Virus record (IMG/VR): IMGVR_UViG_3300027974_001530
Direction: 5' to 3' (one strand)
DNA: 64,000 bases
From: a virus
Taxonomy: Duplodnaviria > Caudoviricetes
Below the pieces are notes generated by a model. That model was not told where the DNA came from and ran no database searches. It was given only the letters and a program-made list of their open reading frames with translations. The stretch's first letter is position 1; each line of letters starts with the position of its first letter. Positions 14,632 through 34,009 of the stretch are shown here, in pieces. The position numbers and the translations under genes are program-made.

Positions 14632-15372
14632 TTATAATCTTCTTGTCAATCTTACTGCATGACGACTAATATTACGGTCTTCACTTCCTCTTAAACTATA
14701 AAGATCGTCCATAATTTCTTCATCAGTTGCGTCACTAGATACGTTACCATATCTAAACACGAAATCTTTAATTTCATTTGGTAAATTTGACATATCAATC
14801 TCTCCATCATCTGCAGATTCTTTAATAACCCTTTTAATAAGTCTTGTTAAATCCGATTCTGTTAGTCTTATAATTTTTTTCATACTTTCATAAAGTTTTC
14901 CATATTTATTTTGTATCCTACGAACCTCCTCCCAATCTTGGGAATCAATCGCAGAATTTAACATGTCATTATATTCTGATTTTGATGGCATGTATTCTTT
15001 TTCATTTTCAATTCCAAGATACGATAATTTTGTATCATCATAGGCGGTTTTAATATAAGGTGAAACATTATTTTCAATTTCCTCAACTGAATCAAAAAAG
15101 GTTGGTTTTAAAACAATACCTTCACTTGATTTTACATATAAAAGATATTTAAACTCACCGTTAGAAAAATTACATAATCCAACATAAACTGTAACATTAC
15201 CCATATTAAAGTTTACCATTAGAGTATCTTTTTCTCCATCTTTATTTATATCAGCATAACTTTTGTCTGAGTTTGAATCCATTCCTATGGAATATAGAAA
15301 ATTAAATAGTTCTTCTTTTCTATCCAAAAATTCATAGTCCTGAAATACATTTTCAAATATAAGTCTTCTCAT
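14632..15372 (-). CDS. two-module protein with an internal MKKIIRLTESDL tag
   Basis: Internal tag with its own ATG at 14883. Confidence 0.85.
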   Translation of the reverse strand: MRRLIFENVFQDYEFLDRKEELFNFLYSIGMDSNSDKSYADINKDGEKDTLMVNFNMGNVTVYVGLCNFSNGEFKYLLYVKSSEGIVLKPTFFDSVEEIENNVSPYIKTAYDDTKLSYLGIENEKEYMPSKSEYNDMLNSAIDSQDWEEVRRIQNKYGKLYESMKKIIRLTESDLTRLIKRVIKESADDGEIDMSNLPNEIKDFVFRYGNVSSDATDEEIMDDLYSLRGSEDRNISRHAVRLTRRL

Positions 15373-15433
15373 AATATTATTTTAATTATAAATATACCGA
15401 ACTATAAAATAAAGATGGGGTTGTGTTTATACA

Positions 15434-15474
15434 AACGAGAGTAATAAACGCCCTTGTTTAAAGAACGAGAGTAA
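15434..15474 (+). repeat. 11-bp direct repeat pair, period 30
   Basis: AACGAGAGTAA at 15434 and 15464 in an intergenic gap. Confidence 0.7.
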
Positions 15475-15477
15475 ATG

Positions 15478-15852
15478 TTACCCCATTGATTTTCTTTTTT
15501 CCCAAGATTGTAATATCATATCCTTATATCGTTTTTCAAGAAAGGGGATTATTTTCCAATATATCTCCATAGCTCTATTTCTACTTAGGTCTACATAAAC
15601 TTCCCCATACTCAGGATCGTGTTCGGTTTCAATTTCATCGTACTTTTCGTGTAAAACAAATTCGTGAACAAGGTTAGTGATTATAGAATTTAAATAATCC
15701 TCAAAATCATTATAAACCGGGATATACCTCATATTAAGTATTACTTCTTTATCAAGATACTCCAAGTCCTTTCGAGTTATTCTTCTTTTAAGAAGAACAG
15801 GAAGATCCTTAAATAATTGTTCGTACTGATTTTCTGTAATTATGATTTTCAC
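15478..15852 (-). CDS. tagged RR-family protein
   Basis: MKIIITENQ; LLKRRI. Confidence 0.85.
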   Translation of the reverse strand: MKIIITENQYEQLFKDLPVLLKRRITRKDLEYLDKEVILNMRYIPVYNDFEDYLNSIITNLVHEFVLHEKYDEIETEHDPEYGEVYVDLSRNRAMEIYWKIIPFLEKRYKDMILQSWEKRKSMG

Positions 15853-15857
15853 ATTAT

Positions 15858-16250
15858 TTAATTTTCAGTATAAAATTTCATATTATAATTTGAATCCATT
15901 TTAAACATAAGGGTAAATGGATGGTCGTATTTTAAATTAAACTCATCAACAAAGTTACTAATTTTATCTGAATACCTGTTTAAAACATCAACACCTTCAT
16001 CGTATTCATTTCTCCACATATAAGGATCTTTATAAAAATCCATTAAGTCCAAACTTTCTCCATCTTCCGAAACCATAAAATCAAGACCACCAAAACTATA
16101 TACCGGATCCGAAGGGAAATGAAAACTTTGTGATAATCTTCTTAACTTAAACCAAATATCCTCCCATGAAATTTCTTTAAAGTTTTCATTAACTAATCGT
16201 TTAACAATAAGAGCCAAATCTTGTTCTGTTAATCTTATAATTTTTTTCAT
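15858..16250 (-). CDS. tagged hypothetical protein
   Basis: MKKIIRLTEQDL tag. Confidence 0.85.
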   Translation of the reverse strand: MKKIIRLTEQDLALIVKRLVNENFKEISWEDIWFKLRRLSQSFHFPSDPVYSFGGLDFMVSEDGESLDLMDFYKDPYMWRNEYDEGVDVLNRYSDKISNFVDEFNLKYDHPFTLMFKMDSNYNMKFYTEN

Positions 16251-16255
16251 AATTT

Positions 16256-16984
16256 TTAACGTTGTAGTTTTGTTTTAACTTTAGACACCATATTTTGTAT
16301 TCCTTGTTTGGCCTTGTCAACCACAGGTGCCGCAAGTGATTTAAGTTCTTGACCAACAATCTTAACTTGTCCTTTTAAATCTGCATTATTAAAATTTTGA
16401 TATTTTTGAGCGGTAATACCCATAGCATAGAAGTCCTTCATGTAGTTGTAAATGTTTGTGGTTTCCTTTGATTGTCCTAAAGTTGTAAGATTAAGATCCC
16501 CCAGACTAGATCTCCACATATAGAATCCTGGTTTTTTTTCTGTGGGACCACTAGTTGTCATCTCCCACTTATCTTTTCTAGATAAGGTATTTAAAAACTC
16601 CTTATCTTCTTCAGTTGGTTTAGTATAAATCGGACCAACATATTTTCCACTCTGATCAACACCAGTAAATGTGGTTAGTAGATCAGGTGTAATCTTTTCA
16701 ACATTAAGATCAACTGCCGACTGATAATCTATTAAAATTAGTTTATAATATTTCTGTTGTTGAGAATCAACCTGTAGTTGAAATGAAAGTGAAAGAGTTC
16801 CTTTTTTGGCTTCAACAAGTTTAGCGTTAGAATTATTAATAGTAAAACCGTTTTTCTTTAGGTCTTCAAAAATTTCATTCGAAAAGTCTTTAACTTCTTG
16901 TTCAGAAATAAGTGGCCTAACATCCCCCATTGTGGATTCCATCAATTGGTTAAATCTATTTTTATAATCTCGAATTGTGTTCAT
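16256..16984 (-). CDS. tagged hypothetical protein
   Basis: LMESTMGDVRPLISEQ shared with 16995..17435; start 16984. Confidence 0.8.
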   Translation of the reverse strand: MNTIRDYKNRFNQLMESTMGDVRPLISEQEVKDFSNEIFEDLKKNGFTINNSNAKLVEAKKGTLSLSFQLQVDSQQQKYYKLILIDYQSAVDLNVEKITPDLLTTFTGVDQSGKYVGPIYTKPTEEDKEFLNTLSRKDKWEMTTSGPTEKKPGFYMWRSSLGDLNLTTLGQSKETTNIYNYMKDFYAMGITAQKYQNFNNADLKGQVKIVGQELKSLAAPVVDKAKQGIQNMVSKVKTKLQR

Positions 16985-16994
16985 ATTATTTTTA

Positions 16995-17435
16995 TTAATC
17001 AATCTTTAGTGAATTTAGTGAAGATGAAGACATAGATGTACTTAATGCTGATGGTGAGGTATTTGTGGGGGTAAATTTCACATTTTTCTTAATGGACTCC
17101 AATCCAGCTCCCGTGGCCTCCACAGGTTTAGGGTATTTTTTATTTGCCGGAGTATTTGGTTGTCCCATAAAATAATATTTGCCAGTTAAAGGCAGATAAA
17201 TGTAGATGTAATTCTTATCGTGAGTTTTATTAATTATAGGACGCATTGATTTTTGTGTTTGAGTTCCTCCAGATGTGGTAACAGTACCTCCCGTTGTTTG
17301 TGTAGATCCTGTGGTAACAGTTCCCCCTGTAGTTTGAGTGGTTCCTGACTGTTCCATTATTAACGGTCTAACATCACCCATTGTGGATTCCATTAAGTTG
17401 TAAAATCTTTTTTTATAATCGTTAATGTTTTTCAT
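16995..17435 (-). CDS. tagged protein with Thr/Gly-rich linker
   Basis: LMESTMGDVRPLIMEQ; (TQTTGGTVTT) repeats. Confidence 0.85.
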   Translation of the reverse strand: MKNINDYKKRFYNLMESTMGDVRPLIMEQSGTTQTTGGTVTTGSTQTTGGTVTTSGGTQTQKSMRPIINKTHDKNYIYIYLPLTGKYYFMGQPNTPANKKYPKPVEATGAGLESIKKNVKFTPTNTSPSALSTSMSSSSLNSLKID

Positions 17436-17471
17436 ATTATTTTTATTAATAAATACATGGGACTTACAAAG

Positions 17472-17663
17472 TTATTTAACCTTTAAACTATTATGATCCA
17501 ATAAAAAATCATATAGTTCATCCTTGGTTGGAATTTCCATTAGATTAAATGTCTTTATGTATTCATCCGATAGATGATTTGGTACGTGGACAATCTCAAT
17601 TTGATTGACTTCATTAATAACCATAATGTTCATATGGTTTTTTCTTCTTCTGACTTTACGCAT
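17472..17663 (-). CDS. small hypothetical protein
   Basis: ORF track; TATTTAT at 17681-17687. Confidence 0.65.
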   Translation of the reverse strand: MRKVRRRKNHMNIMVINEVNQIEIVHVPNHLSDEYIKTFNLMEIPTKDELYDFLLDHNSLKVK

Positions 17664-17782
17664 AATTTTGTTATATACAAATAAATATCAAAATTTTCCA
17701 AAAATTTTTTTTAGAAATGGGGGGTTAATTAAAATAGGGGGTCGACTTTACAGATTAGAAGGGTTTTACTTTACATATTATA

Positions 17783-18061
17783 TTAACAATTACGTTCGTA
17801 GTATATTTCAGTTAACTCAACATAGAACATATCCTTTAGTTCAGACATAATCCCATCGTAGTCAAAATCATCCATCAAATAATATACAGGGTGAAGTTCA
17901 TCCATCATAATGTTTACAAATCTTCTTTCGTATTCATCAAAAGATTTAAACTTACAAGGAGTAATAGTGTCAAGGGTTTCTTCAAAACTATTCTCAACTA
18001 ACTTATATCTTCTTAGTAACCACCATCTATTATTTTGTGCTTCCGTAATAATAATCCTCAT
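17783..18061 (-). CDS. tagged RR-family protein
   Basis: MRIIITEAQ; WLLRRY; TPCKF. Confidence 0.85.
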   Translation of the reverse strand: MRIIITEAQNNRWWLLRRYKLVENSFEETLDTITPCKFKSFDEYERRFVNIMMDELHPVYYLMDDFDYDGIMSELKDMFYVELTEIYYERNC

Positions 18062-18193
18062 AGTAATAAATATACCACCAATTAGTATGGGGGAATATTT
18101 CCGATTTTTCCCAAAAATTTTTCCAGAATTTTTTTACGAATATTTCATTTTTGGGATTGAACCCCCTTTTCCCCCTGTCAATATGTCATATAA

Positions 18194-18249
18194 GGGGGCA
18201 TACGGGAGGGGGGAGGGGGTAGTTCTTATATACCCCCATAGGGGAGGGG
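18194..18249 (+). other. G-tract cluster (potential G-quadruplex)
   Basis: G5-CATAC-G3-A-G6-A-G5, then G4-A-G4, in an otherwise very AT-rich genome. Confidence 0.6.
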
Positions 18250-18356
18250 TATGCCAAACCCATTTGACCCCCGTCCTATGTCAGTCTGTCATGTTGATAA
18301 CTTTATGATCCCCTATGGGTTGTTAATATCTTTTAATGAATAAACATGGGGGATAG

Positions 18357-18388
18357 TTTGGTGGTGTCAATTAAATCCCGTACCTTTA
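18357..18388 (+). promoter_or_regulatory. near-consensus sigma-A promoter (TTTG-N20-TACCTTTA)
   Basis: One mismatch to TAnnTTTG; precedes the candidate ncRNA. Confidence 0.45.
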
Positions 18389-18392
18389 TATT

Positions 18393-18565
18393 GTCAGTGG
18401 TTCATATACCGAGACGGGTCAGGGAAACAAGTTCTTCTCTAAGAGGGTAGACTCCACCCTGCTTTATATTATAGTATGGGGAAAAGTATAAGGCAGGTTG
18501 GAGTCCACTTGCTTCTCATCTTTCAGAGTAGTCGTCTAGAGTATAACCCCCAAACCAATACTCTA
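18393..18565 (+). ncRNA. candidate structured non-coding RNA, unknown class
   Basis: Nested stems found by eye (20-bp 18450-69/18486-505; 18422-32/18507-17; 18412-17/18532-37; 18537-44/18558-65) downstream of a near-consensus promoter. Confidence 0.45.
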
Positions 18566-18746
18566 AGATACGATATATATTTGACATGGCAAAACAATTA
18601 GGCATAAAAAAATTCCCCATCATAAATAGGAAAGTGACATTGTTATTTGGTTGACCTCATCTTAATCTTTATGGTCCCTTGGGATCCTGATTAACTAACT
18701 CCCTACTGTGGGGAAAATAAGTTCTATAATAAATATAACGTAGATC

Positions 18747-18777
18747 TTGAAAAGGTAAATTGTATCCATTATATTTG
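18747..18777 (+). promoter_or_regulatory. sigma-A promoter, leaderless type
   Basis: TTG-N20-TATATTTG-N4-ATG. Confidence 0.7.
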
Positions 18778-18781
18778 TACC

Positions 18782-18934
18782 ATGGAAAATCTTTTAACTG
18801 TATATCTTATTCTTATCTGTCTCTTACTTTGGGGGATGACACTGTGTGCCTTCTTCTTGAAATACTTCCCCAAGTCAAAGGTCTCAGACTTTATTCGTCG
18901 TCACATTGTAGATGAGATTGATGATCATGAATAA
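18782..18934 (+). CDS. 50-aa single-pass membrane protein
   Basis: Manual translation MENLLTVYLILICLLLWGMTLCAFFLKYFPKSKVSDFIRRHIVDEIDDHE; TTG-N20-TATATTTG promoter 4 nt upstream. Confidence 0.7.
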   Translation: MENLLTVYLILICLLLWGMTLCAFFLKYFPKSKVSDFIRRHIVDEIDDHE

Positions 18935-19202
18935 GACTGAGGGAATAGTCCTGTAGTTCAGATCCTATCTTATTGAAGTCCCCATCTTTTACCATCCCTT
19001 GTTGATACATATACTCTATTACATCTCCCATGTCTGCTGACTGTAGTGTGTAGAACCTTTGTCTTATTGGTTTATTCTGCCCCACAATGTTGTGTTCTTT
19101 GTACACACACGTGCCAGAAAAGTTATGGTGACAATATGTCAGGGTTATGGTATCACCACTTTTGTTAATAACTTTATTGAAAACTTCTAATAACTGTGTC
19201 AT
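18891..19202 (-). CDS. hypothetical protein
   Basis: ORF track; 3' end overlaps the convergent small gene. Confidence 0.5.
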   Translation of the reverse strand: MTQLLEVFNKVINKSGDTITLTYCHHNFSGTCVYKEHNIVGQNKPIRQRFYTLQSADMGDVIEYMYQQGMVKDGDFNKIGSELQDYSLSLIHDHQSHLQCDDE

Positions 19203-19773
19203 AAGGGGGAATTGTTAATAAATAAATATGTTAATTTTCTTGTTTTTGTCAAAATGTCATGCTCGTTCGCGTCACTACACAATGCTTTTCCCACTTTCTA
19301 CCACTTATATTATGGTATATACTTACCACTTCTTCCCACCACTATTGGTCCTGTTGCTATCGTAAGAGTTAAAAAAACCCTTCTAGTGGTACCTGTAGAG
19401 GGGATTTTTTTACTATAGACAAACTCCAGCGAAAAACATCTAGTTATGGTACAGTAGCCGTGGACAGACATTTATGTCGTTAGTAGATCACTTATAGATA
19501 ACTTCAACGAACCATAAGTGTCCAACTTATGACCCTTTTAACCTTTGACCCCATAACAATAGACAACTTATATAGACATGTAAACATATTATTAAGTGGT
19601 AATAAGCGGTAATAAGTGGGGAACATAATGTATTTTATACTACTCATTGTTCCCCCTTCATCTACCAACTAATAACACACCATAACAATTACCTCATCAA
19701 GACCATTGGTCTTACATACAATTACACATAATGTGTTACACAAAATGTATATTAATTTTGTCTACTTAATAGG

Positions 19774-19811
19774 GACCGATTAAATGGTGAGGTCGAAGAC
19801 CGATTAAATGG
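19774..19811 (+). repeat. 14-bp direct repeats flanking a GGTC-GAA-GACC hairpin
   Basis: GACCGATTAAATGG at 19774 and 19798. Confidence 0.85.
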
Positions 19812-19919
19812 AGAACGAAACGAAGTGTAGTGATTAAAAGGGGGGGACTTATTATAAGGTTATATCCTTACATTACTGTTTAAGATATGTCCCAATAATT
19901 ACCACATATCCTTTATAGA

Positions 19920-19970
19920 AAGGTAAAGATTACTCTTGTTTTTAATACGAAGGTAAAGATTACTCTTGTT
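19920..19970 (+). repeat. 21-bp direct repeat pair, period 30
   Basis: AAGGTAAAGATTACTCTTGTT at 19920 and 19950. Confidence 0.9.
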
Positions 19971-20098
19971 AAGAGTATAAGATTAAATTATGAGGTGAAT
20001 TCCGTAGTGATAACGGAGGACTATGAACCGAATGAATTAATCTTATACTGAACCATTATTTGTTCTTGTAGTTTCATATCATATAATTATCAATTTAC

Positions 20099-20452
20099 TC
20101 ATCTTTTATTTTTATGATATAATTTGTAAATTTCATCAGAATAATTTCCTTGAATATACTCCGCTAATACATTGTAATATGTGTCATATACCTTATCAAC
20201 AACTGACTGATCATATTTTTCATCTTCTTCATCTACAGTATAACCAATACTATCAATATAATCCGACAATAAATCATTTATTATTAAATCGGAAATTTCA
20301 TCAATAAGAGTTCTAAAACTACCTTTTAAATTGTGGTTACCATATGCTAATAAAATATTATTAACATATCCATCAATTCTTCTCAACATAGACGTTGGAA
20401 TAACTTCAGTTTCTTCAATCAGTATTCTTCTTATGTGTTCTTGTAGTTTCAT
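20099..20452 (-). CDS. tagged RR-family protein
   Basis: MKLQEHIRRILIEE; MLRRI. Confidence 0.85.
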   Translation of the reverse strand: MKLQEHIRRILIEETEVIPTSMLRRIDGYVNNILLAYGNHNLKGSFRTLIDEISDLIINDLLSDYIDSIGYTVDEEDEKYDQSVVDKVYDTYYNVLAEYIQGNYSDEIYKLYHKNKR

Positions 20453-20820: not shown

Positions 20821-21596
20821 TACTCTTTTATTTCAGGGAGTTTAGTGTCCTTCATAAATTTATTATGTGATGCTTTGTATGATTTTTGTGTCTCGTCATT
20901 CTCATCTTTGGTGTATTGCCAGTTCCAATATAAATTATCGTTTGGTTTGAACCCGTAGAATTCATGTACTTCTTTTTGTATTTTGGTTACATTCTCACCA
21001 TTCCAATTCTGTCCCACACAAATAAATCCTGTTTCAATATCTTTGATAATGTTAGATTCACCCAATGTTGTATGTCTATTCTCCAACCAGTTTAATCTCT
21101 CAATTAAATTTTGGTAATACATATTTGCTTGTCCCCATCTTATTGAACTAAAAAATATAACTGCGTCTGACTCAAATAACTCTTTTGATATCTTCCACAA
21201 CTCATCTGAAGGTTCATTAATATTAACCCAACATCTGTGATCCCCTGATGGGTTCTTTTTCTTATCTTTAAGTGCGGCTTTTAATACTCCACAACTGTTT
21301 CCATCTTTTCTTGATACATTACCCTCACAAGGTAATATTTTAAGTTCGGGAACATCAATCAATACTGACTTATCTCCCAACTCATCGTTCAAGTACATTG
21401 CTATCATCTTGGACTTTGGTATGTCTATATTCTTTTCATCAAAATTATATCTATTGGAACAACTAAGTAGTAATACTTTTTTCTTATCTTTAAGGATATC
21501 TAAAGTTTGTTTGATTGATTTCCATGCATCTGATTGAACCATCTCCTCAGATATCATCATTGATCTTATTTTTGATATTTGTTCTTGTAAGTTCAT
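20820..21596 (-). CDS. tagged flavodoxin-like protein (NADPH-dependent FMN reductase / iron-sulfur flavoprotein type)
   Basis: LLLSCSNR, ILPCEG, DAVIFFSSIRWG...LIERL. Confidence 0.75.
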   Translation of the reverse strand: MNLQEQISKIRSMMISEEMVQSDAWKSIKQTLDILKDKKKVLLLSCSNRYNFDEKNIDIPKSKMIAMYLNDELGDKSVLIDVPELKILPCEGNVSRKDGNSCGVLKAALKDKKKNPSGDHRCWVNINEPSDELWKISKELFESDAVIFFSSIRWGQANMYYQNLIERLNWLENRHTTLGESNIIKDIETGFICVGQNWNGENVTKIQKEVHEFYGFKPNDNLYWNWQYTKDENDETQKSYKASHNKFMKDTKLPEIKE

Positions 21597-21598
21597 AT

Positions 21599-22009
21599 TT
21601 ATATTTTTTCAAAAGTTACAAATGAAATGGTTAATGATTTTTTTTCGGTGTCATCAATAAAATCAAGTATTTTTTTTACATTTTGTACTTCTATCAATTT
21701 AACAGTTCCACTTTTACCTTTAAAATTATATCCTACTAATTTTTTACTGCCATCCCCAAAATCTTCTACAACATGATCCACATCCACAATGTTAATAAAT
21801 TTACCATTAGGTGCTTTAATTTGCATTTTGATCAAGGTTTTATTTTTGTCCTCAATTTGGAATTTGTGTGGTTCTTCTATGAGGTCCAATTTGAATTGTC
21901 TACCTAAAATTTTATCGGTACTCAAATCAATTGATTCTAATAATATTAAATCAGAATTATTATAATTTATCATTTCTCTAATTCTTTGTATGTTCTCTTG
22001 TATGTTCAT
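21599..22009 (-). CDS. tagged hypothetical protein
   Basis: Start reassigned to MNIQENIQRI (22009). Confidence 0.8.
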   Translation of the reverse strand: MNIQENIQRIREMINYNNSDLILLESIDLSTDKILGRQFKLDLIEEPHKFQIEDKNKTLIKMQIKAPNGKFINIVDVDHVVEDFGDGSKKLVGYNFKGKSGTVKLIEVQNVKKILDFIDDTEKKSLTISFVTFEKI

Positions 22010-22010
22010 A

Positions 22011-22370
22011 TTAATACTCATCATCACAGATTCTACCGTCAAATTGATTTATAAGGTAATTACCATATTTTTTAGTTAATAAGTGCCATATAATTTCTTC
22101 AATTTCTGACATTTCATGTTTAACATAAAGTTCATCACTAAAATGATTAATAAAATTAGAACTTGCAACTTCAAAAATTACATCTTTATAATCTTCAGAT
22201 GTACTATAACCACAAGGACTAATTTGATCGGTTAAACTATCAATTTGTTCATTTAGGTATTCTTTTATATCTTGGGTTTCCAGTCTTCTTAATAACCAAA
22301 TCTTATTTTTATATGACTCATTCAGATTCATCATGGATCTAATCCTTTGTATGTTTTCTTGTGGATTCAT
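22011..22370 (-). CDS. tagged RR-family protein
   Basis: MNPQENIQRI...LNES; WLLRRL; SPCGY. Confidence 0.85.
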   Translation of the reverse strand: MNPQENIQRIRSMMNLNESYKNKIWLLRRLETQDIKEYLNEQIDSLTDQISPCGYSTSEDYKDVIFEVASSNFINHFSDELYVKHEMSEIEEIIWHLLTKKYGNYLINQFDGRICDDEY

Positions 22371-24198: not shown

Positions 24199-26529
24199 TT
24201 AATATCTTTTTTTAATTTCAACAGTATGAACAATATCCAAATAAAAATCTTCAAGGTCTCTTTCACCTGATGTAATTTTATTAATAACCTCATCTCTACG
24301 ATAAGCGGTATTATCTACAATAAACTCAAGCATTTCTTCATCAGTAATATCTTCAGGTTTAACTGGTTCAGGAATACAATCGTGGTTTCTATCAAATAAA
24401 TCAACATCATCAAAATAAAAACCTGTTTCACCAACTATTTGTTCAAACTTTGGGATCATAGTATCTTCATACCATTCCTCTATTATGCTCGTCACAAAGT
24501 TTTTTCTTGCGTTAAAAATTCTCATTATCTTTTCTACTAATGTTTTTGTTATCAGTAATGAACCACTATAAAATTTACCGTCTTCGTAATAGTATATTGC
24601 GGTAATAACTTCTTTACCGTTAACACACCAATCCTCACGAAGATTACCATAGTTACGAGATTTTTTACCTATTTCTCTATTACCACCCTCAATATAATCA
24701 TCAAGAAATAATGTGATAACTTTTCTAAGACTATCTGTGGATTTAAGGTATCTTTGTCTTTGGTCTTCTTCCCTCAATACTTTTATTATGTTTTCTTTTA
24801 AATCTGTTCCCCCACCATCTAACTTATCAGTAAACCCCATAAGTTTATCAAATGCTGGATGTGACATTATTGGTTCTTTTTTCTTATCTTTCATCTGATT
24901 CCAAGTTGACGGTTTAACTTTCATATGGTTCTTAACAAGATATTTAATTTCATCAACATCCATTCCTTCAAATGATTCAATCCAATCTTTATATCTTTCA
25001 ACATAGTCCGTTGATTTATCTTCGTGTCCGTACGCCGTTGGTTGATTTGTTTTTGGATTTATTTTATATGTGTCTATCTTACCTAAGTCGTGAAATAATG
25101 CCGCCATTACCATGTTTGGATCATCAGGATAGTGATGGTAAGCTCGTTTAATAACAACAATAATATGTTTAAGAGTATTCCCTTCAGGATGCCATTCAGG
25201 ATTTTGTTTTGCCCCCCATTGTTTGAATAAAAGTTCTTTTAATTCCTTTGGTAAGTTCTTAATTAACTCCTGTGGTGTCGCATGAAGTTTTTCTTCCCTC
25301 AATACTCTTCTTATAGATTCTTGCATATTTCTTGGTTCAAATTTTTCTCTATTTTTCCAAATCTGTCCACCTTGATCTAATTGATTTCGTCCTTTTGTTT
25401 TTGAATTAACAATTGGAAGGCCAAAGTAGTCTGATATTTTTTGATATACTATTGTTGCAATTCCTTGTCCTCTATATTTTTCAGGAATAACAATATCTCC
25501 TACATATATTTCACCATCATTAATTACAATGTTCATTTGTCCAAGATCAACAACACCGTCTTCACTGGTAATATCTTGGTCGTCAACCATAATAATAATA
25601 TTTTGAATTTTACCAAAATGATTATACATATTCCGACCTAAACGAATTTGAACTCTATCTTCTTCAATTCTTGTTGATGGGTCTGAAAGTTTAAATGGGT
25701 TTCTTATGTTATTTTTATGTTCATCGGATTCCCACATTTCTCGTTTATTAATATTCTCCTGTTCTTTAATATTAAAAATAAAATGTATTCTCCATTTATT
25801 AATTATTCTATCGGAAATATTATACATAAAATCATCATAATCAATCCCTCCCCAAATACCATTAAACGTCAGATTTACATCAACTTCAAACATAGGAATT
25901 CTACTTATACCTTTTTTTATTTCTATATTTAGAATACTTATTTTATCTATAGTATCAACAACATCGCAACCATCAAACGATAACCAATCAGGGAAAGTAT
26001 CCGCATCAGGCACTTCACAAATATTTTTAATTTCATCAAGTGTTTGATCAACGATGTTTTGGAATGTCCCAATCATTGTTTTTTTATTTAACTTATTATC
26101 ATTAGTTGATTCCATTAATCCCCAATCCTTACCTGTACCTTCATGTTTTAATGTTATTGCATTTGCAGGTATGTTTTCAAATGTTACTATATGTTTTGAT
26201 CTTGATTCATAGTGTTTATCTTTATACCACTTAACATCAGGTATCATTTCAGTATTAATTTCCCATACATCGTCATCGTATGTGGAATCAAAAGACGCTC
26301 TTTTATTTGTTGAGTTGGTTGCAAAGATTGCTGGTATACATTTTTCACCGTAACCCGCATAAATTTTATAACATTCTCCAGCTCTTACTTTTAAACCTTC
26401 ATTTGTTATTTTATCTCTAACCTTTGGATTAGATTTATGTATAACAATTTTGTTTGGTATTATTTCTTTACCCGCAGGACTATATTCATCTTCCCTTAAT
26501 ATTCTTCTTATGGATTCCTGTAGGTTCAT
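24199..26529 (-). CDS. polyvalent protein: ART-like + unknown + GNAT + HD + unknown domains, separated by tag repeats
   Basis: IHKS...EGL (ART-like), YRGQGIA (GNAT), WHPEG...KH...ALFHDLGK (HD); tag at N-terminus and twice internally. Confidence 0.8.
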   Translation of the reverse strand: MNLQESIRRILREDEYSPAGKEIIPNKIVIHKSNPKVRDKITNEGLKVRAGECYKIYAGYGEKCIPAIFATNSTNKRASFDSTYDDDVWEINTEMIPDVKWYKDKHYESRSKHIVTFENIPANAITLKHEGTGKDWGLMESTNDNKLNKKTMIGTFQNIVDQTLDEIKNICEVPDADTFPDWLSFDGCDVVDTIDKISILNIEIKKGISRIPMFEVDVNLTFNGIWGGIDYDDFMYNISDRIINKWRIHFIFNIKEQENINKREMWESDEHKNNIRNPFKLSDPSTRIEEDRVQIRLGRNMYNHFGKIQNIIIMVDDQDITSEDGVVDLGQMNIVINDGEIYVGDIVIPEKYRGQGIATIVYQKISDYFGLPIVNSKTKGRNQLDQGGQIWKNREKFEPRNMQESIRRVLREEKLHATPQELIKNLPKELKELLFKQWGAKQNPEWHPEGNTLKHIIVVIKRAYHHYPDDPNMVMAALFHDLGKIDTYKINPKTNQPTAYGHEDKSTDYVERYKDWIESFEGMDVDEIKYLVKNHMKVKPSTWNQMKDKKKEPIMSHPAFDKLMGFTDKLDGGGTDLKENIIKVLREEDQRQRYLKSTDSLRKVITLFLDDYIEGGNREIGKKSRNYGNLREDWCVNGKEVITAIYYYEDGKFYSGSLLITKTLVEKIMRIFNARKNFVTSIIEEWYEDTMIPKFEQIVGETGFYFDDVDLFDRNHDCIPEPVKPEDITDEEMLEFIVDNTAYRRDEVINKITSGERDLEDFYLDIVHTVEIKKRY

Positions 26530-27926
26530 ATTTCCTCTTCTATTTTTTTTTGTTTAAGTGGTGGATCCAATAAAAACTTATTATTAATCCAATTTCTTAA
26601 TTCATTTTCAACAAAAAATTCTGGAACTTCGTTATCTTCAGGCATAGTTGACGCTAGTTCAGCAATGTATCTGGCAAATTTAACTTTATATTTATTATCC
26701 ATTAAGGTCATTAATCCATCGGATATAAAAAAAATTCTAGATAATGGATCAGATAAATTTAATTCACCTTCAGTTAAATCAAACATTTTCATTACCACCT
26801 TACCCCACCAAGTCTTATAACTTGTTGTTTCTTCTAAGGTTGGTCTTAAAACTTTATTAACCGCTCTAACAATTGAACCTGTAAAACCGGCAATTGCCAA
26901 TTGTGGAATAAACCAAGGTAATAATCGTATTGTTGCTTTAACACCTCCCTCACCTACGTGTTGAAATAATCTTCTGCTAGTCGCGGAATCAACTATAGCC
27001 TTTAATTGACCAAATGTTATTTTACCTTGAGAACTACAAAATTTTTCTGAATCACAAATGTTTTTTAAAGCATTTTTGTCGGGATTTGTTTCATTTAACC
27101 CAATCAATGATTGTGATCTTAATGTTTGTTCAGTTAAAGGATCAAAGTATCTACCTTCTAAGTCAATGTCTCTAACTTCAAGACCTGAGTTATCCTCGAA
27201 CCATTTTTTAAAGACAGGAATCCATTTATCTCCAAATAATAATGTTAACCCATTGTTTACCCATTTTGTGATCACTAAGGCATATAAATAATCATACCCA
27301 TCCCACTCACCAAGATAAGCGTAAGCAAAGAGATCGTTTATCTCAAAGTCATAACTCCCATGTTTATTTACATCATCCCTATAAAAATCATGTAATTCTG
27401 GACCCCAATTATAATCAGGATGATATTCTTCTTTTAAATATTGATATATAAATTCATTAAGATCTTCTCCATCAAAATTTAATATCTTTATTAATCTTTC
27501 TACACTACCAACCGCCTTTGCCGTTTTTTTAATTCCTATAGTACGAATCATTCGGGACAAATTATCTTGTATTGTTTCTTCCCTCAGTATTTTTATTACT
27601 GATTCATTTATACCATATTTTCTTTTTATTAAGTCGTATCTTTCTTCTATTCTTTCATCATAATATTTTCTAAGAACATAAAAAACATCATCATACCATT
27701 GTAACTCATTTGGGAGGGTATATACCAATATATTGTGTATTCCGTCTATGGTCATTGATAATATGGTATTTCTAAATGTGACCAATGGTACAATACTACC
27801 ACTTTCTTTAAGATTTATTGAACATTTATTTGAAATCGTATCTAAACACTCGGTAAATTCCATTTCTAAATACTCAGGACTTACTCTACGTAAAATTAGA
27901 TTTAATGTTTTATCGTTTATGTTCAT
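26526..27926 (-). CDS. multi-module protein (RR module plus two further modules)
   Basis: Start reassigned to 27926; internal INESVIKILREE and LTEQ...LNE junctions. Confidence 0.8.
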   Translation of the reverse strand: MNINDKTLNLILRRVSPEYLEMEFTECLDTISNKCSINLKESGSIVPLVTFRNTILSMTIDGIHNILVYTLPNELQWYDDVFYVLRKYYDERIEERYDLIKRKYGINESVIKILREETIQDNLSRMIRTIGIKKTAKAVGSVERLIKILNFDGEDLNEFIYQYLKEEYHPDYNWGPELHDFYRDDVNKHGSYDFEINDLFAYAYLGEWDGYDYLYALVITKWVNNGLTLLFGDKWIPVFKKWFEDNSGLEVRDIDLEGRYFDPLTEQTLRSQSLIGLNETNPDKNALKNICDSEKFCSSQGKITFGQLKAIVDSATSRRLFQHVGEGGVKATIRLLPWFIPQLAIAGFTGSIVRAVNKVLRPTLEETTSYKTWWGKVVMKMFDLTEGELNLSDPLSRIFFISDGLMTLMDNKYKVKFARYIAELASTMPEDNEVPEFFVENELRNWINNKFLLDPPLKQKKIEEEI

Positions 27927-27985
27927 ATTAATAAATACGACCATAAGATAAAACTGACTATTTTATAATTAACATAGTTGTTGTA

Positions 27986-28279: not shown

Positions 28280-28283
28280 ACTA

Positions 28284-28350: not shown

Positions 28351-28488
28351 TTATTTTATTTTAATACCTGTAATTTTTTTAAATCTTTGTTTTAGTTTTA
28401 TTCTCAAATACCTATTAACAACTTTACTGATGTTTTTTTCTTTTTCTAACAACCTCATTTTTAGATCGTCCTCTGTTCTTATATTCAT
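28351..28488 (-). CDS. 45-aa basic protein
   Basis: Manual translation MNIRTEDDLKMRLLEKEKNISKVVNRYLRIKLKQRFKKITGIKIK; fills the gap between genes. Confidence 0.45.
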   Translation of the reverse strand: MNIRTEDDLKMRLLEKEKNISKVVNRYLRIKLKQRFKKITGIKIK

Positions 28489-28489
28489 A

Positions 28490-28723
28490 TTAAATTAATT
28501 TAAAATTTTCTGTAGTTAACAATTTAACTATTCGTTTCTCAGATACTGAGTTAATTGCTGGTCTTGTTGCAACTTCAGTTATCCCCTTGGAAAATACTAC
28601 TTGAAACTTCTCTGTGTTTTTAATGTAAAACCTTGATACATGACAGTATTCTCCTTTGTCATTAACAAAATTACCAAAAGATTTGGCCATTAATAGTTGT
28701 CCGAGTGTGATTTTATTTTCCAT
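28490..28723 (-). CDS. hypothetical protein
   Basis: Start reassigned to 28723 (TATCTTTG 4 nt upstream). Confidence 0.7.
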   Translation of the reverse strand: MENKITLGQLLMAKSFGNFVNDKGEYCHVSRFYIKNTEKFQVVFSKGITEVATRPAINSVSEKRIVKLLTTENFKLI

Positions 28724-28727
28724 ACCA

Positions 28728-28735
28728 CAAAGATA
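28728..28735 (-). promoter_or_regulatory. sigma-A -7 element, leaderless type
   Basis: TATCTTTG-N4-ATG. Confidence 0.65.
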
Positions 28736-28775
28736 TGTGAAATTTATTAACCCCACAAATAAATTTATTTATTTC

Positions 28776-29225
28776 TTAAGATTCTTCTATCTGTTCTGAA
28801 TCTAACACTACCGTTGTATTTCTACCGGCAAATGCTGGTTCGTAAGCAGCAACTGATTTAAATGGAAAAAATTTGTTCATTTCATCACGTAAAGTACCTA
28901 TAATCCAAGATTGCATATTACTGGCCATAAGATTTGTTTTAAAATATATTTTAATACGTACTTTATCCGGTCTATTTCTATTAACCTCAAGAAAAGATAT
29001 TTCAACATCATCAAATTCCACAAAATTAATAAAGTTTTTAACTAACATTTCTTGGGTTTCAATATCGGTAACATCCAAATTTAATATTTTTACAACATTT
29101 TTAAATCCTCCAACAACACTAGATACAAAATGAATACCTTTAGTTTCAAATAAATTTCTAACACTCTTTTGAATATCGGTATCTTCTTCCCTTAATATTT
29201 TTAATATTTTTTGATTGTCAAACAT
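28776..29225 (-). CDS. tagged hypothetical protein
   Basis: ILKILREE tag; VGGFKNV shared with 32646..33143. Confidence 0.8.
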   Translation of the reverse strand: MFDNQKILKILREEDTDIQKSVRNLFETKGIHFVSSVVGGFKNVVKILNLDVTDIETQEMLVKNFINFVEFDDVEISFLEVNRNRPDKVRIKIYFKTNLMASNMQSWIIGTLRDEMNKFFPFKSVAAYEPAFAGRNTTVVLDSEQIEES

Positions 29226-29280
29226 ATTAAATAAATACATCGTAAAAATAAAAATAAACCCAACTTTTTGGTTAGGTTTA

Positions 29281-29880
29281 TTAATCCAATGATTTTGGTA
29301 GATACAACAATGTTGGGTTCTTTTTTTGAATATCTACGTCAGGAAACTTCTCACTAAAAGTCTTAACATCAAATCTACCTGTAATCAAATGCCACCCGTT
29401 TTTTGTTGGTATAACCGCTTCAATTTTTTTACCTTCGGGTCTAAGATAATTAATAAATTGCGATAGTTCAGTGACCGCATGAAAATCAGTTACGTCAATA
29501 TCAACAATCCATCTTTTCTCTTGAGTTTTAATTTGTCCAACAACTGAATCAAATAGACCCTTTTGATTTGATACACCATCTCTAATACGTTCAGCAAGTG
29601 ATGCTAACATATTTAACGATACATCTTTATGATTTTGTTTTTGTACGTGAATGTATGCTCGTGCTTTAAAGATCTCACATAGTTCTTTAATCTCATCATA
29701 CCTACGTTCCAAGTGTTCAATAGATTCAATACAATATGTTTTAATTGTACGAACTGACTGATGGTTATCTCTTTCTCCTTCAGGTTGATCTTTCTTACGT
29801 TTAAAAACATATAACATATAGAAATCCCCCTGTTCAGAAAAATTCAATAAAGGTTTAATAATTTCTAAATTGTTTATCAT
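29281..29880 (-). CDS. AEP (primase-polymerase) superfamily-like protein
   Basis: WIVDID (DxD) and TKNGWHL motifs. Confidence 0.55.
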   Translation of the reverse strand: MINNLEIIKPLLNFSEQGDFYMLYVFKRKKDQPEGERDNHQSVRTIKTYCIESIEHLERRYDEIKELCEIFKARAYIHVQKQNHKDVSLNMLASLAERIRDGVSNQKGLFDSVVGQIKTQEKRWIVDIDVTDFHAVTELSQFINYLRPEGKKIEAVIPTKNGWHLITGRFDVKTFSEKFPDVDIQKKNPTLLYLPKSLD

Positions 29881-30184
29881 TTTTTATAATTTTATATCCA
29901 TTCAATTTTATCCACCCTAAAAAATCAAGTGCGGTCCATTTGTTTGGATCTAATTCACCTAAAGGTCCGTCACCAAACTGATCAATAAATCCTTGGAGGA
30001 TATCTTTTTCTATTTCAAATCCTCTATTTTCACTTTCATTTATTTTAATCTTAACCATTTCAATGGCACATTTTTCACATTGGACTGCCTTTTTATCTCC
30101 TGAAAAAGTATTCTTACATGTAATACAATTACAGTGATAAAATCCAGAAGCAAATCCACCTATTGGATATTTTACTTCTCCCAC
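29855..30184 (-). CDS. zinc-finger protein
   Basis: CITC...CEKC. Confidence 0.75.
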   Translation of the reverse strand: MGEVKYPIGGFASGFYHCNCITCKNTFSGDKKAVQCEKCAIEMVKIKINESENRGFEIEKDILQGFIDQFGDGPLGELDPNKWTALDFLGWIKLNGYKIIKNDKQFRNY

Positions 30185-30423
30185 TATTCTTCAATATTAT
30201 TTATAAATGATTGTCGTTTAATTTTAACCAAACTCTCAAGTGGTTCAATAACTGTGTATTGATAATTTCTCCAATATTTGGCATTTTCGTTATTTATTAA
30301 TTGTTTTGCAAAATTACTAATCAATGTTTTAGCGGTAATTGTTTGTTGGTATGTCTCACAAGAATCAATTACCTTTTCAATCCATTTTGATACGTCTCCG
30401 TAGTGTGTGCTTCTTTTTTCCAT
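30184..30423 (-). CDS. hypothetical protein, paralog of 51700..51927
   Basis: KWIEKVIxSC motif; start 30423 preferred. Confidence 0.75.
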   Translation of the reverse strand: MEKRSTHYGDVSKWIEKVIDSCETYQQTITAKTLISNFAKQLINNENAKYWRNYQYTVIEPLESLVKIKRQSFINNIEE

Positions 30424-30425
30424 TT

Positions 30426-30923
30426 TTATAATTTTTTTAATATTAAACAACCTTCTTCATCCAATTTTGGTTTACCTGTAGTAATACAAACACCTTTTTT
30501 ATTTATACCATCACAATTCTTGTCTAAACACTCTTCAACTATCTCAACATCCCATTCAGTTTGTTGATTAGCTAAACTAAGATATTGTATTGTCAATCCT
30601 GTTTTTCTACTTTTTTCAATTATAGAAATAACATCATCCTCACTAAACTTCTTATCACCCATCAACTCTATCATAACTTCAATAGTTCTTTCTACTGCGG
30701 CTAATGTAAATGAATCAGGACATCCATCAAAACCATTAAATATTTTTTTCTTTATATCAACCAAATCATAACCACGTTCAATTTCTTTGCAGTTTTTGAT
30801 GGATAACATACCAACCTGATCATCTCTTGTTGTTCCTAATAGATAACCGGTGTCGTAAGTTCCTTTGGTTGGGTCAATTAAAATGTAGTTACCCTTATCT
30901 GTCTTAATTAGTTTTGCTTTCAT
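30426..30923 (-). CDS. hypothetical protein
   Basis: ORF track. Confidence 0.8.
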   Translation of the reverse strand: MKAKLIKTDKGNYILIDPTKGTYDTGYLLGTTRDDQVGMLSIKNCKEIERGYDLVDIKKKIFNGFDGCPDSFTLAAVERTIEVMIELMGDKKFSEDDVISIIEKSRKTGLTIQYLSLANQQTEWDVEIVEECLDKNCDGINKKGVCITTGKPKLDEEGCLILKKL

Positions 30924-30955
30924 AAGTTAATAATACAAAACTTTTTTTAAAAAAC

Positions 30956-30989
30956 AAAATCCCACAACCTGTTAAAGTGTGGGATTTTT
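30956..30989 (-). terminator. intrinsic terminator
   Basis: AAAATCCCACA...TGTGGGATTTT. Confidence 0.8.
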
Positions 30990-31019
30990 ATTGTTTGGTG
31001 TTGTGTTAATCTTATTGTA

Positions 31020-32228
31020 TTATATTTTTCCAAAATTAATGTAACTTGAGATATCATCTGCTTGGTCTCTTATTTTGTTAAATTCATATTGTAGTTCGTT
31101 AACCTCGTAAGTTATGTTTTTTAATTTTTTATCTAAATTTTCTTTTATTTTTAATAAATTATAGTACTTATCTTTTATCCCGTTAAATTCTAAAAATTGA
31201 TCAAAACTTTTTGGTTCTATTTTCATTACTCTATAATAATTCATAACAATATCATACAATTCTAAAGTTTCTTTTACAAATCTTACAGATTTTGTTGCAT
31301 TATAACTTCTTTTTGCGGTGTTCAACACTTTGTATTTTTCTTTAAGTAAATTATCTAACTCTTCATACCTAGACTTATTAAATTCTTGTTCCTTTTTATA
31401 CTGTTGATCATAATATTTTAAATAAAGATTATATGTATAATCTCTAATAAGTTCAATAAATGAACCTAAAATATTACTACCAATATATTTTCTAACAGTT
31501 CCAGGAGTTACCTCATCATCAATTGCATTCCAAAAAGCAAAATCACCTTTTTTACTATTTGCCAAAAAATTCTCTTTATACCTCCAATCAGTACTTGTTG
31601 GGGGGTCGTACTGAATTGCAATTTTAAAGTAGTTTTTAGATTTTTTCTTTCCTGGTATTGGTTCTCTTAATTTATCTATAACAAAGAAAAATAAATTTAC
31701 ATCACTATAATTTTCAAAATAATTGTTTGTGTTTGATGCAATACACCATTTAGTATTTGATCCATATTTACAGGAAGCCTCTTTATTTTTTGGTCTTACC
31801 AAAACATACTTATCGTCTTCATATAATTTTTCAACACCGGATAATTCAAGTTCTTTTTTTGTGATTTTTGTTATTGCCTCTTCATATTTTTTTTCAAATT
31901 CCTCATAACTATATTGGTAAATGTCTTTTTTTTCAAACTTATGTTGATTTTTATCAAAATAATTAATCATTAATATTAAATCTTCAATTTCTGTGGTTAA
32001 ATCTTTTTGATCTCTTTCAATTAATACTTTTGATATCCAATTAAAATATTTTTTGGTTGGGGATGGGTCTAAATTATAAGCATCTTTTATAATATCATTA
32101 TATGTGTCATTATATTTTTTTTCATAATATTTAAGTAAATCGTCAAGTTTACTTTCAGATAAAATGGTTTTATTTGATAAGAAATTTGTTAAACCATTAA
32201 TTCTTTTTATCTCTTCTCTTAAATTCAT
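31020..32228 (-). CDS. tagged protein with SCxYG..TKWC domain, paralog of 58866..59912
   Basis: MNLREEIKRI...ILSES; ASCKYGSNTKWCIA. Confidence 0.85.
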   Translation of the reverse strand: MNLREEIKRINGLTNFLSNKTILSESKLDDLLKYYEKKYNDTYNDIIKDAYNLDPSPTKKYFNWISKVLIERDQKDLTTEIEDLILMINYFDKNQHKFEKKDIYQYSYEEFEKKYEEAITKITKKELELSGVEKLYEDDKYVLVRPKNKEASCKYGSNTKWCIASNTNNYFENYSDVNLFFFVIDKLREPIPGKKKSKNYFKIAIQYDPPTSTDWRYKENFLANSKKGDFAFWNAIDDEVTPGTVRKYIGSNILGSFIELIRDYTYNLYLKYYDQQYKKEQEFNKSRYEELDNLLKEKYKVLNTAKRSYNATKSVRFVKETLELYDIVMNYYRVMKIEPKSFDQFLEFNGIKDKYYNLLKIKENLDKKLKNITYEVNELQYEFNKIRDQADDISSYINFGKI

Positions 32229-32248
32229 ATTAATAAATATCCCTTATA

Positions 32249-32641
32249 CTAATAATTGTATTCATCATCATCATCGTCTTCTTCATCCCAAGTGATAGGC
32301 TCATCATCGTCTTCAATAGTACCTAAATTACTACCTGATTCAACCCAAACTTCAAAAGGTGTTGAAAGTCCACAATTTTCAACATACTGAATAAAAAATT
32401 CTTCCAAATATGAATCGTCTTTAAAAATTCTAGATATTTGGTCATAGATTTCTTTTTGTACCGATAATGATTTATCTGGTTTAACTATTAAAAATATAAC
32501 AGTGTTTCCCGGAGTTGCAAGATATTCCATTCCATAACGTTTGTTTTCCCAAGGTCTTAAATCCAACCTTGAGAGGAATAGTTTTGCGATCTCTTGTTTA
32601 TCTATAGTTTCTTTTAATATATGTCTAATATTTTCTTTCAT
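32249..32641 (-). CDS. tagged hypothetical protein
   Basis: MKENIRHILKE. Confidence 0.8.
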   Translation of the reverse strand: MKENIRHILKETIDKQEIAKLFLSRLDLRPWENKRYGMEYLATPGNTVIFLIVKPDKSLSVQKEIYDQISRIFKDDSYLEEFFIQYVENCGLSTPFEVWVESGSNLGTIEDDDEPITWDEEDDDDDEYNY

Positions 32642-32645
32642 AGTC

Positions 32646-33143
32646 TTACATATTTAATAATTCTGCACTAAACCCATTAAAAAAATTTAATTTAATTTCT
32701 TTAAAATATCTTCTAAAATACTCATCCACAATTTCACTAACTTCATTTTTTATTTGCCAATATTCTTCAAAATCTTGCATTTCTTTACTTAAAAGATCAT
32801 AAGTTTTATCTGTTGTCATAATTAAAGTTACCTTACCATATAAAACATCAAAATTAACTTCTAAAAAATCATCTTCATCATAATTATTAATTTCCCTAAC
32901 TTTAAAAGTAAAATCATATCCACCAACTTGTATTTTAAATTCTAACTTTCTAACGTCAATTTCTTTACCTATAAACTCTTTTTTTAAAAGATCTATTTCT
33001 GACATTTTAACTATTTTAGAAACGTTTTTGATTCCTCCAACTTTTCTACAAACCATTAACAATCCTTCATTATTAATCATTTTTAAAAATTGATCACCTA
33101 AATTTAATTCTTCTTTTAAAATATTTCTTATTAGATTTTTCAT
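32646..33143 (-). CDS. tagged hypothetical protein
   Basis: MKNLIRNILKEE. Confidence 0.85.
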   Translation of the reverse strand: MKNLIRNILKEELNLGDQFLKMINNEGLLMVCRKVGGIKNVSKIVKMSEIDLLKKEFIGKEIDVRKLEFKIQVGGYDFTFKVREINNYDEDDFLEVNFDVLYGKVTLIMTTDKTYDLLSKEMQDFEEYWQIKNEVSEIVDEYFRRYFKEIKLNFFNGFSAELLNM

Positions 33144-34009
33144 CCCTCTGTAATCTCTATATAATTGAAATGTTTATCTATATTAAAACCAAAGGATTCA
33201 ATAACATTATGAACAAACTGTTCAACCAATCCTACAATACCTTCTTTAAATTCATGATAAGAATAAAAATCATCAAATGGATTATTACCTGTTGAAAAAT
33301 TTATGTCTTGTCCTGATTCTGGATCATAAAATGTACCTTCTAATACAATAAAATTGGCGTCTAAATCTATATAATTTTTAGTTGGGTTTAATAGGTTTTC
33401 TTCATCCTCTTCACTAAATTCAACTTTATCAAATTTAATAGTTAGTTTACCATCAAAAAAATCACCCATGACTTGTATCATTTCTCTTTCAGTAAATGTA
33501 TTATCCATTAGGTATTTAGTTATTATTTCAGTTCTACTATTACCATCATAACCCATATATTCCATAAAAAATAGAATTATCTCATTTTTTTTTGAACCCA
33601 ATCCAAGTTTACTTATATCATATATGTTTGGTATTTTACCTTGTTTTTTTTCTTGGTCCCATTTATTGAAAAAGAATTTTTTAAGTTGGTCTATATTATT
33701 AGACTCCTGTATTTGATTTTTTCCTGTTTTTCTAAAATTATAATAATATGCCTTTAATAAAGGATCATAAATCTCAATCATATATACTATATACCCATCA
33801 ACTTCATTTGTTGGTAACTCATCTATATTGATATTGTATTTGTAAAAAATGTAATTTTCTAATGTTGCTTTAACTAATCTCCATTTAAACTCCTCAAGAG
33901 ATTCGGATTCATAAAAAATATAACTAGTTCCTTTCCTCATCATTTTTTCAAATTTATGATGATCAATTCTTCTCACAAAAAAAGGCGAAATATTATGATT
34001 GTTATCCAT
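33140..34009 (-). CDS. two-module protein (RR module plus module paralogous to 40152..40718)
   Basis: Start reassigned to 34009; IQES junction; KKFFFNKW..GKIP. Confidence 0.8.
   Translation of the reverse strand: MDNNHNISPFFVRRIDHHKFEKMMRKGTSYIFYESESLEEFKWRLVKATLENYIFYKYNINIDELPTNEVDGYIVYMIEIYDPLLKAYYYNFRKTGKNQIQESNNIDQLKKFFFNKWDQEKKQGKIPNIYDISKLGLGSKKNEIILFFMEYMGYDGNSRTEIITKYLMDNTFTEREMIQVMGDFFDGKLTIKFDKVEFSEEDEENLLNPTKNYIDLDANFIVLEGTFYDPESGQDINFSTGNNPFDDFYSYHEFKEGIVGLVEQFVHNVIESFGFNIDKHFNYIEITEG

Follow-up and report, generated by a model that had tools for sequence, protein, structure and literature searches.

Leader tags as probable crossover sites for module shuffling in the gene array of a T4-like jumbo phage

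A few short peptide tags open dozens of unrelated small proteins encoded in a 64,000-nucleotide stretch of the Caudoviricetes record IMGVR_UViG_3300027974_001530 (hereafter, the window), and the same tags recur inside several of its long open reading frames (ORFs). This arrangement raises the question of whether the DNA encoding the tags is where these genes are exchanged and fused. The initial annotation of the region had proposed as much, attributing new multi-cargo polyproteins to recombination or stop-codon loss at tag sequences. The underlying observation, comprising the identity of the tag DNA, its recurrent motif and the in-frame internal tags, is confirmed here, and comparison with near-identical relatives contributes direct breakpoint evidence. 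Taken as a whole, the evidence makes it probable that the tags act as crossover sites for module shuffling and serve as capsid leaders.

The window, with a G+C content of 27-33% and nearly all genes on the minus strand, is part of a hyperplastic "tag + cargo" gene array in an uncultured T4-like jumbo phage of Bacteroidota ("cargo" and "effector" being inferred labels throughout). Its thymidylate synthase is nearest to those of Flavobacterium phage vB_FspM_immuto and of uncultured huge phages. The nearest record, a 76-kb IMG/VR contig (G002), is collinear with the window from position 24254 on, at 91-98% identity, and metagenome contigs L092-L098 span window positions 11.6-17 kb at 90-98% identity. 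Head genes and protease were read in the complete relatives G003-G005, not in the window's own genome. Among cultured phages, megablast of the region and a search with the 246-residue ORF described below returned no match, and tblastn of the 776-residue ORF returned only distant HD or CCA-enzyme matches; viral contigs searched with the 246-residue ORF likewise gave no match, whereas a metagenome search did give relatives. Pfam and PHROGs provided no name for most modules, and no radical-SAM domain was found among the 30 ORFs and modules scanned with Pfam, a scan that did not cover the window exhaustively.

Modules and joints in the long reading frames

About 40 tags were curated in the window, falling into roughly five families: M[KR]II[IL]TExQ; MK[KR]I[IV]RLTExDLxRIVxRVIxE; MNLQExIxRIxSMM together with xxLIxxIL[KR]EE; xxxFxNLMESxxGxxxPLIxEQ; and MSKLLTEISRIxELMG. 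All tags and joints contain [LIVMW]-x-E, a motif that often arises by chance in these Ile/Leu/Glu-rich proteins, and in all joints it is followed by S, N, D, E or T. In fused forms, neighbouring modules are separated by a tag, full or degenerate, or by a minimal x-E-S/N joint, and one and the same module wears differing tags in different phages. Window genes, tags and modules given below lie on the minus strand, and a slash within a peptide marks a joint, cut or crossover.

The 776-residue ORF (24199-26529) comprises five modules, in the order tag, module 1a, module 1b, GNAT-like module, internal tag, HD module, internal tag and module 3. Its internal tags are in frame, at residues ~401 and ~587, and residues 11-170, 138-266, 404-595 and 580-776 each match separately in relatives. 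The DNA of its N-terminal tag, MNLQESIRRILRED (26488-26529), is internal in G002 as TKLQESIRRILRED, where homology with the window starts at codon 3 of the tag and where tag and module 1a are fused behind a cyanophycin-synthase-N-like module (PF18921, E = 1e-45). Module 1a (26110-26487, C-terminal joint GLME/S) is N-terminal in the window, lies behind an RRID-type module in L002 and sits in the middle of a 654-residue ORF in L005, with other modules on its flanks. The top Foldseek matches of its AlphaFold2 model (mean pLDDT 76.5) are tRNA 2'-phosphotransferases (E = 1e-4, TM-score 0.52-0.59), pointing to a Tpt1/KptA-like ADP-ribosyltransferase (ART) fold. Module 1b (25702-26109), which ends at the joint EMWE/S followed by the half-tag DEHKNNI, is free-standing behind the tag MKFIITESQ in L003/L004 and is joined straight to module 3 in G002. 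The GNAT-like module (25330-25698), absent from G002, matches Pfam Acetyltransf_1 with E = 1e-3, which falls short of the cut-off. Behind the internal tag RNMQESIRRVLREE (25291-25332), the HD phosphohydrolase module (24808-25290) passes the cut-off (Pfam HD, E = 1.4e-5); in L003/L004 it is a free-standing 197-residue protein with 78% identity and another tag, MNLRENIETIKNMM, and the homology starts at EEKLHATPQ, the first residues past the tag.

The internal tag TDLKENIIKVLREE (24766-24807) precedes module 3 (24202-24765), of the EEWYEDTM family, which is likewise both free-standing and fused in relatives. It stands alone in L002, with the tag MRDLIKKILKEED, and in L006-L010, with MKIIITEEQ; in L011-L013 it is fused behind a 120-residue module through the joint NFVITEEQ. 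Searched without its tag against 1.84 billion cluster representatives, module 3 returned 60 clusters, including about 13 free-standing (191-216 residues) and about 11 fused forms (264-567 residues); a recognisable N-terminal or internal tag precedes it in nearly all of the 30 inspected, P0003 being doubtful.

The 776-residue ORF thus carries at least two conflict-type domains, among the HD domain, the weak GNAT-like match and the Tpt1/KptA-like ART fold. With a Tpt1/KptA-like fold predicted for module 1a and an HD domain as the fourth module, the cargo looks enzymatic and would therefore include enzymes. In this the ORF resembles the polyvalent proteins of phages and conjugative elements, in which several conflict-type enzyme domains are strung in one chain, proposed to accompany the DNA on delivery and to be split into units (Iyer et al. 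2017, PMC5512222). Unlike polyvalent proteins, the window chains lack an MPTase or any other autoprocessing peptidase family in Pfam scans of the ORFs and their modules; their joints repeat leader tags and would obey the prohead protease rule, and their modules are mostly small and unnamed.

The remaining long ORFs follow the same plan. The 472-residue ORF (26526-27944) consists of an RRV-type module, the internal tag YGINESVIKILREE (27576-27617, residue ~121), a middle module, a degenerate MKIIITE-type joint, PLTEQTLRSQ (27111-27137), and a C-module that is free-standing in L015 behind MKIIITEEQ, the joint being equivalent to IITEEQ of that form; its residues 16-108, 89-267, 162-260 and 272-466 occur as separate ORFs in other contigs. 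In the 301-residue ORF (33140-34045), an RRID-type helical module is joined through NQIQE/S to a C-module; relatives of the latter, with 24-31% identity, stand alone behind MKELIRKILKEE. The RRID module occurs by itself (118 residues, tagged) in L003/L004/L041/L042 and elsewhere N-terminal or C-terminal, fused to 1a, 1b or other modules. The 246-residue ORF (14632-15372) contains, as the initial annotation had noted, an in-frame second tagged gene, MKKIIRLTESDL (ATG at 14883): after its N-part and the joint LYE/S come a complete tag with its own ATG, MKKIIRLTESDLTRLIKRVIKE (14818-14883, residue 164), and a 61-residue cargo. Its C-part corresponds to a free-standing 83-residue protein found in more than 50 clusters (71-96% identity), one form having another leader. 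Finally, the 158-residue ORF (12697-13173) opens with the tag MKIIITEDQ and links a 52-residue module to a second module through RILKE/N. Depending on the contig, the 52-residue module is free-standing (66-83 residues), N-terminal or C-terminal.

That small module, MIKLDIKVGDTIMGGKFKNKKVVVKTIGKNDKGDITINGKPLLRFRI (12958-13119), is also 85-94% identical across many otherwise diverged contigs, a conservation far above that of any other cargo, and has no Pfam match.

The annotation had suggested looking in relatives for modules that occur both free-standing and fused in different orders, with breakpoints at tags. This comparison bore it out: ORFs 26526-27944, 33140-34045 and 12697-13173 do join separable modules, and every module of these, of 24199-26529 and of 14632-15372 was found both free-standing, with an N-terminal tag, and fused in other orders. 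The edges of homology in relatives coincide with tags or with minimal [LIVMW]-x-E joints, and the relatives clearly do not show a fixed domain architecture devoid of free-standing modules.

The window derives from a single metagenomic assembly, and fused ORFs could in principle be assembly or sequencing artefacts, or decaying pseudogenes, although nothing specific favours such an origin. The 246-residue fusion, however, recurs in five independent metagenome contigs (L092-L096) at 90-98% identity, and G002 keeps the 301-residue fusion at 92%, residues 1-286 of the 472-residue ORF at 92% and a rearranged 776-residue ORF that runs off the contig end. With the frames open throughout, we regard artefact or decay as very improbable.

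Breakpoints between near-identical genomes

Within the tagged arrays, comparison with relatives of 90-98% identity yielded 18 distinct rearrangement endpoints, 10 of which lie no more than 2 nt from tag DNA. Tag DNA makes up 4.2% of the compared stretches (P = 6e-10 against a uniform null), and two further endpoints fall at degenerate internal tags. Close relatives differ by the gain, loss or replacement of cassettes, with endpoints in tag DNA or at its edge.

In G002, window positions 24804-25699, encoding the GNAT-like and HD modules, are missing. The crossover lies inside the internal tag at 24766-24807, where HKNNI/RNPF and LKENI/IKVLREED have AACATAA in common and the G002 product reads EYKNNI/IKVLREED. 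Window positions 26527-27109 are replaced in G002; the right edge coincides with codon 3 of the tag of the 776-residue ORF, which thus becomes internal, and the left edge with the end of the degenerate PLTEQTLRSQ tag. All of the 472-residue ORF past residue 278 is replaced. The 25-residue tag of an 814-residue ORF, MSKLLTEISRIRELMGIKSEVLNES (38275-38349), has 23 of 25 residues in common with G002 and its DNA lies within a high-scoring segment pair of 96% identity, the cargo diverging right after NES.

Comparison with the metagenome contigs revealed a chimeric tag, VKIIITENQ (15826-15852, GTG start). At the corresponding position, L092 carries an extra 166-residue gene between two copies of MKIIITENQ tag DNA arranged as direct repeats; the window tag takes its 5' part, with the GTG start and ATTACA, from the first copy and its 3' part, with AATCAG, from the second. 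Combining parts of both L092 copies, it is a crossover product. Similarly, L094 keeps the upstream region and the tag (MKIIITESQ, 13765-13791) of the gene at 13468-13827, with a different cargo from codon 10 onwards, and its homology to the gene at 12697-13173 starts at that gene's ATG. L097 and L098 break at 14868, inside the RLTESDL tag of the 246-residue ORF, and then run into a terminator.

Breakpoints at tags in near-identical relatives and the chimeric tag support the proposal that recombination at tags makes new fusions; for its other half, stop-codon loss, no case came to light. Such a simple origin was looked for and rejected: free-standing module 3 of L002 has another upstream gene and another tag subtype, and no adjacent gene pair in the relatives matches a fused pair of the window.

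Modular shuffling in T4-type phages is known from the promoter-early stem-loop (PeSL) cassettes (Arbiol et al. 2010, PMC2839356; Comeau et al. 2014, PMC4122927). As with the window tags, short repeats at gene starts are there the crossover sites at which near-identical phages gain, lose or replace ORFan cassettes; some tagged genes also have an upstream hairpin and a promoter-like motif, and in both systems the crossover falls inside the repeated element flanking the cassette, as in the chimeric tag and the window/G002 exchange. A PeSL, however, is an intergenic promoter plus stem-loop, whereas the window element is mainly coding, namely the tag. Mini-circles and junctions mapping to the repeat have been shown for PeSLs. 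Unlike PeSL exchanges, several window crossovers fall in protein-coding DNA, either among the first 9-25 codons of a gene or in an internal tag, and their outcome may therefore be a protein chimera or fusion and not only a new gene order. We view the window system as a larger, protein-coding version of the gene shuffling known from T4 relatives; it differs from the published systems in its scale, its several interchangeable tag families and, above all, coding-sequence crossovers that leave tags as joints in chains.

Other differences between the window and its relatives were recorded in passing. At window position 46320, G002 has an 831-nt insertion (21248-22079), placed at the boundary preceding the thymidylate synthase gene, and the thyA region is a patchwork of blocks with 76-92% identity. 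A glutamine-synthetase-like gene at 48744-49943 (Gln-synt_N and Gln-synt_C) is not in the 96%-identical G002. Between two tagged-gene arrays, a segment of ~2.4 kb (17690-20100) has a higher G+C content (0.36), no convincing ORFs and a partial match to L098 at 70-82%.

Tag DNA, short homology and selection

The first clue to shared tag DNA had been a match of 26 out of 30 nucleotides between 26491-26520 and 25294-25323, encoding QESIRRILRE and QESIRRVLRE on the minus strand, together with related copies at 24769, 27579 and 29187. Both were reproduced, although most of the 26/30 identity is explained by peptide identity and codon bias. The 11-nt motif TTCCCTYARTA has exactly five matches in 64 kb, all at tags, the fifth within the tagged gene MFDNQKILKILREED (28776-29240), against 0.30 expected; none of 100 shuffles reached five. 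Among eight ILREE-type window tags, codons are shared at 122 of 162 identical-residue positions, as opposed to 86 expected. Furthermore, the Arg of [LIVM][LIVM]RE[ED] is encoded by the rare AGG codon in 55% of 53 tags (those of the window, such as 26491-26499, and of loci L001-L043), compared with 15% of 498 other Arg-Glu pairs. This enrichment points to nucleotide-level constraint on the tag DNA or to its shared descent.

Such patterns could also arise through selection only, if illegitimate recombination struck anywhere and only in-frame joins at a flexible tag or linker survived, the likeness of tag DNA being a by-product of peptide conservation. Several observations agree with this account and weigh against crossover at tags. 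The MKIIITE tags present no excess of codon sharing (235 positions versus 250 expected). Exact runs of identity between tags are short, with a median of 7-8 nt in the two largest families, 13-14 nt in the remaining ones and a maximum of 17-22 nt. Many endpoints lie at tag edges and not within tags, and indels away from tags are frequent in the same genome pair: a 720-nt indel at 30184-30903, of which G002 keeps a 7-codon remnant, and many window/G002 indels beyond 43 kb are off tags. On the other side stand the chimeric tag, both of whose parental copies are direct repeats in L092, the window/G002 crossover inside an internal tag, the enrichment of rare AGG, the repeated 11-nt motif and the report that T4-type recombination needs only patches of <50 bp (PMC2839356). 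Since recombination of this type works on such patches, the tags may be read as short-homology crossover sites; given how short this homology is, part of the pattern may be due to selection for in-frame joints. As the whole explanation, selection on its own appears unlikely.

Under the favoured reading of tags as crossover sites, tag DNA, in places with an upstream hairpin and TATTTAT motif, would offer the recombination machinery of the phage short stretches of portable homology. If two N-terminal tags crossed over, a cargo would be swapped or deleted; if an internal or 3'-proximal tag-like sequence took part, an in-frame fusion would result. A fused chain would in that case reach the head under a single address, to be cleaved into its modules by the prohead protease, and selection for in-frame joins would sharpen the pattern of breakpoints at tags.

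A bolder and more tentative version, which we consider possible but would not favour, holds that the tags are dual-purpose, with the peptide acting as capsid address and protease joint and the DNA as a dedicated recombination signal, for which the 11-nt motif and the conservation of the rare codon AGG are hints. It would imply combinatorial assembly, swapping and concatenation of injected enzymes across a group of lake jumbo phages, and the resulting exchange inside coding sequence would be the viral equivalent of that seen with integron or polymorphic-toxin cassettes. Orphan toxin cassettes of contact-dependent inhibition (CDI) and Rhs systems recombine at DNA encoding a conserved pre-toxin motif that marks off the variable module. 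As in the window, DNA for a conserved peptide supplies the homology for module swaps; unlike the window proteins, these are bacterial toxins with a C-terminal variable part and without a capsid or protease context.

Capsid address and prohead protease

A Peptidase_S77 prohead protease (PF03420) is encoded by all three complete relatives (E = 1e-23 to 1e-24). G003 has a T4-like head cluster with portal, protease, scaffold and gp23-like major capsid protein (MCP) genes, and alignment of this MCP to mature T4 gp23* indicates that the cut would fall at HLKE/N or LINE/A, likely the same kind of site as the tag joints. The motif (A/G)TATTTAT lies 5-25 nt upstream of 13 tagged window genes (for instance, upstream of 7854, 13791, 18061, 32228 and 10388) and also precedes the terminase, protease, scaffold and MCP genes of G003 (L105). 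Some tagged genes have a G+C hairpin with a T run ahead of the motif, and many genes are packed without a spacer. We consider (A/G)TATTTAT a candidate late promoter with a PeSL-like layout, and its occurrence at both tagged and head genes suggests shared late expression. By analogy with T4, the most likely role of the tags is that of capsid-targeting leaders, which a T4-type prohead protease would cut.

Two features were observed beside these head genes. Next to the G003 MCP gene, on the plus strand of L105 (12077-13153), lies a gene for a 358-residue basic protein with a C-terminal tag-like sequence, RITESHLVLLIKNILKEL, and a 448-residue ORF ahead of the G003 terminase gene starts with MGHKELEKLIRRIVKE.

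The closest precedent for such leaders is provided by the T-even ip genes (T4 IPI, IPII and IPIII), whose loci are polymorphic (Repoila et al. 1994, as cited in PMC12373910, PMC3012670). As in the window, a short leader at the N-terminus, the capsid-targeting sequence (CTS), is all that otherwise unrelated and fast-changing proteins have in common; the phages are of T4 type, with a protease of the same family (here in the relatives), the loci differ between close relatives, and the window leaders, like those of T4, would end in [LI]-x-E. Unlike the ~3-10 ip genes, the window holds ~40 tags in roughly five families within 64 kb, and its tags also sit inside long ORFs as module joints. The window tags bear no obvious resemblance to the T4 CTS.

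An alternative holds that the tags are not capsid addresses at all and represent an N-terminal helix common to these proteins, or a cassette for expression or translation start, with the long ORFs being uncut multidomain proteins and the internal tags relics of fusion. In its favour, the ~40 tagged genes far outnumber the few internal proteins of T4, AT content is very high around the start codon of the tags, and proteins of this composition often contain [LIVM]-x-E by chance. Conversely, the peptide pattern of internal tags persists in divergent fusions in which translation no longer begins at that point, one cargo can wear different tags, the promoter-like motif is common to tagged genes and to a relative's head genes, and both an S77 protease and, in the MCP, a likely [LI]-x-E site are present in the relatives. 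Overall, we find the absence of a capsid role rather doubtful and prefer to interpret the tags as capsid leaders.

Beyond the T4 group, head proteins of the giant phages phiKZ and SPN3US are cleaved at a short x-E motif and include paralogue families. The abstracts on these phages describe many head-internal proteins cleaved by a prohead protease (PMC5694885, PMC10052503); they concern a different phage lineage, and interchangeable N-terminal tag families or tag-jointed chains are not among the features that these abstracts describe.

If the tags are both address label and crossover point, they would give these phages a built-in way to try new sets and chains of DNA-delivered proteins, which would explain the fast turnover of "dark matter" gene pools in jumbo phages. 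This reading predicts which proteins occur in virions, offers a simple rule for splitting hundreds of unannotated phage ORFs into modules, by cutting at tags and x-E-S/N joints, and would make natural tags available for loading foreign proteins into Bacteroidota phage capsids.

Outside the tagged ORFs, the window encodes an RNA ligase (60402-61538; PF09414 and PHA02142 OB domain) and a UvrC-like GIY-YIG endonuclease (50167-51450). Both genes share the region with the Tpt1-like and HD modules, a possible RNA-repair theme.

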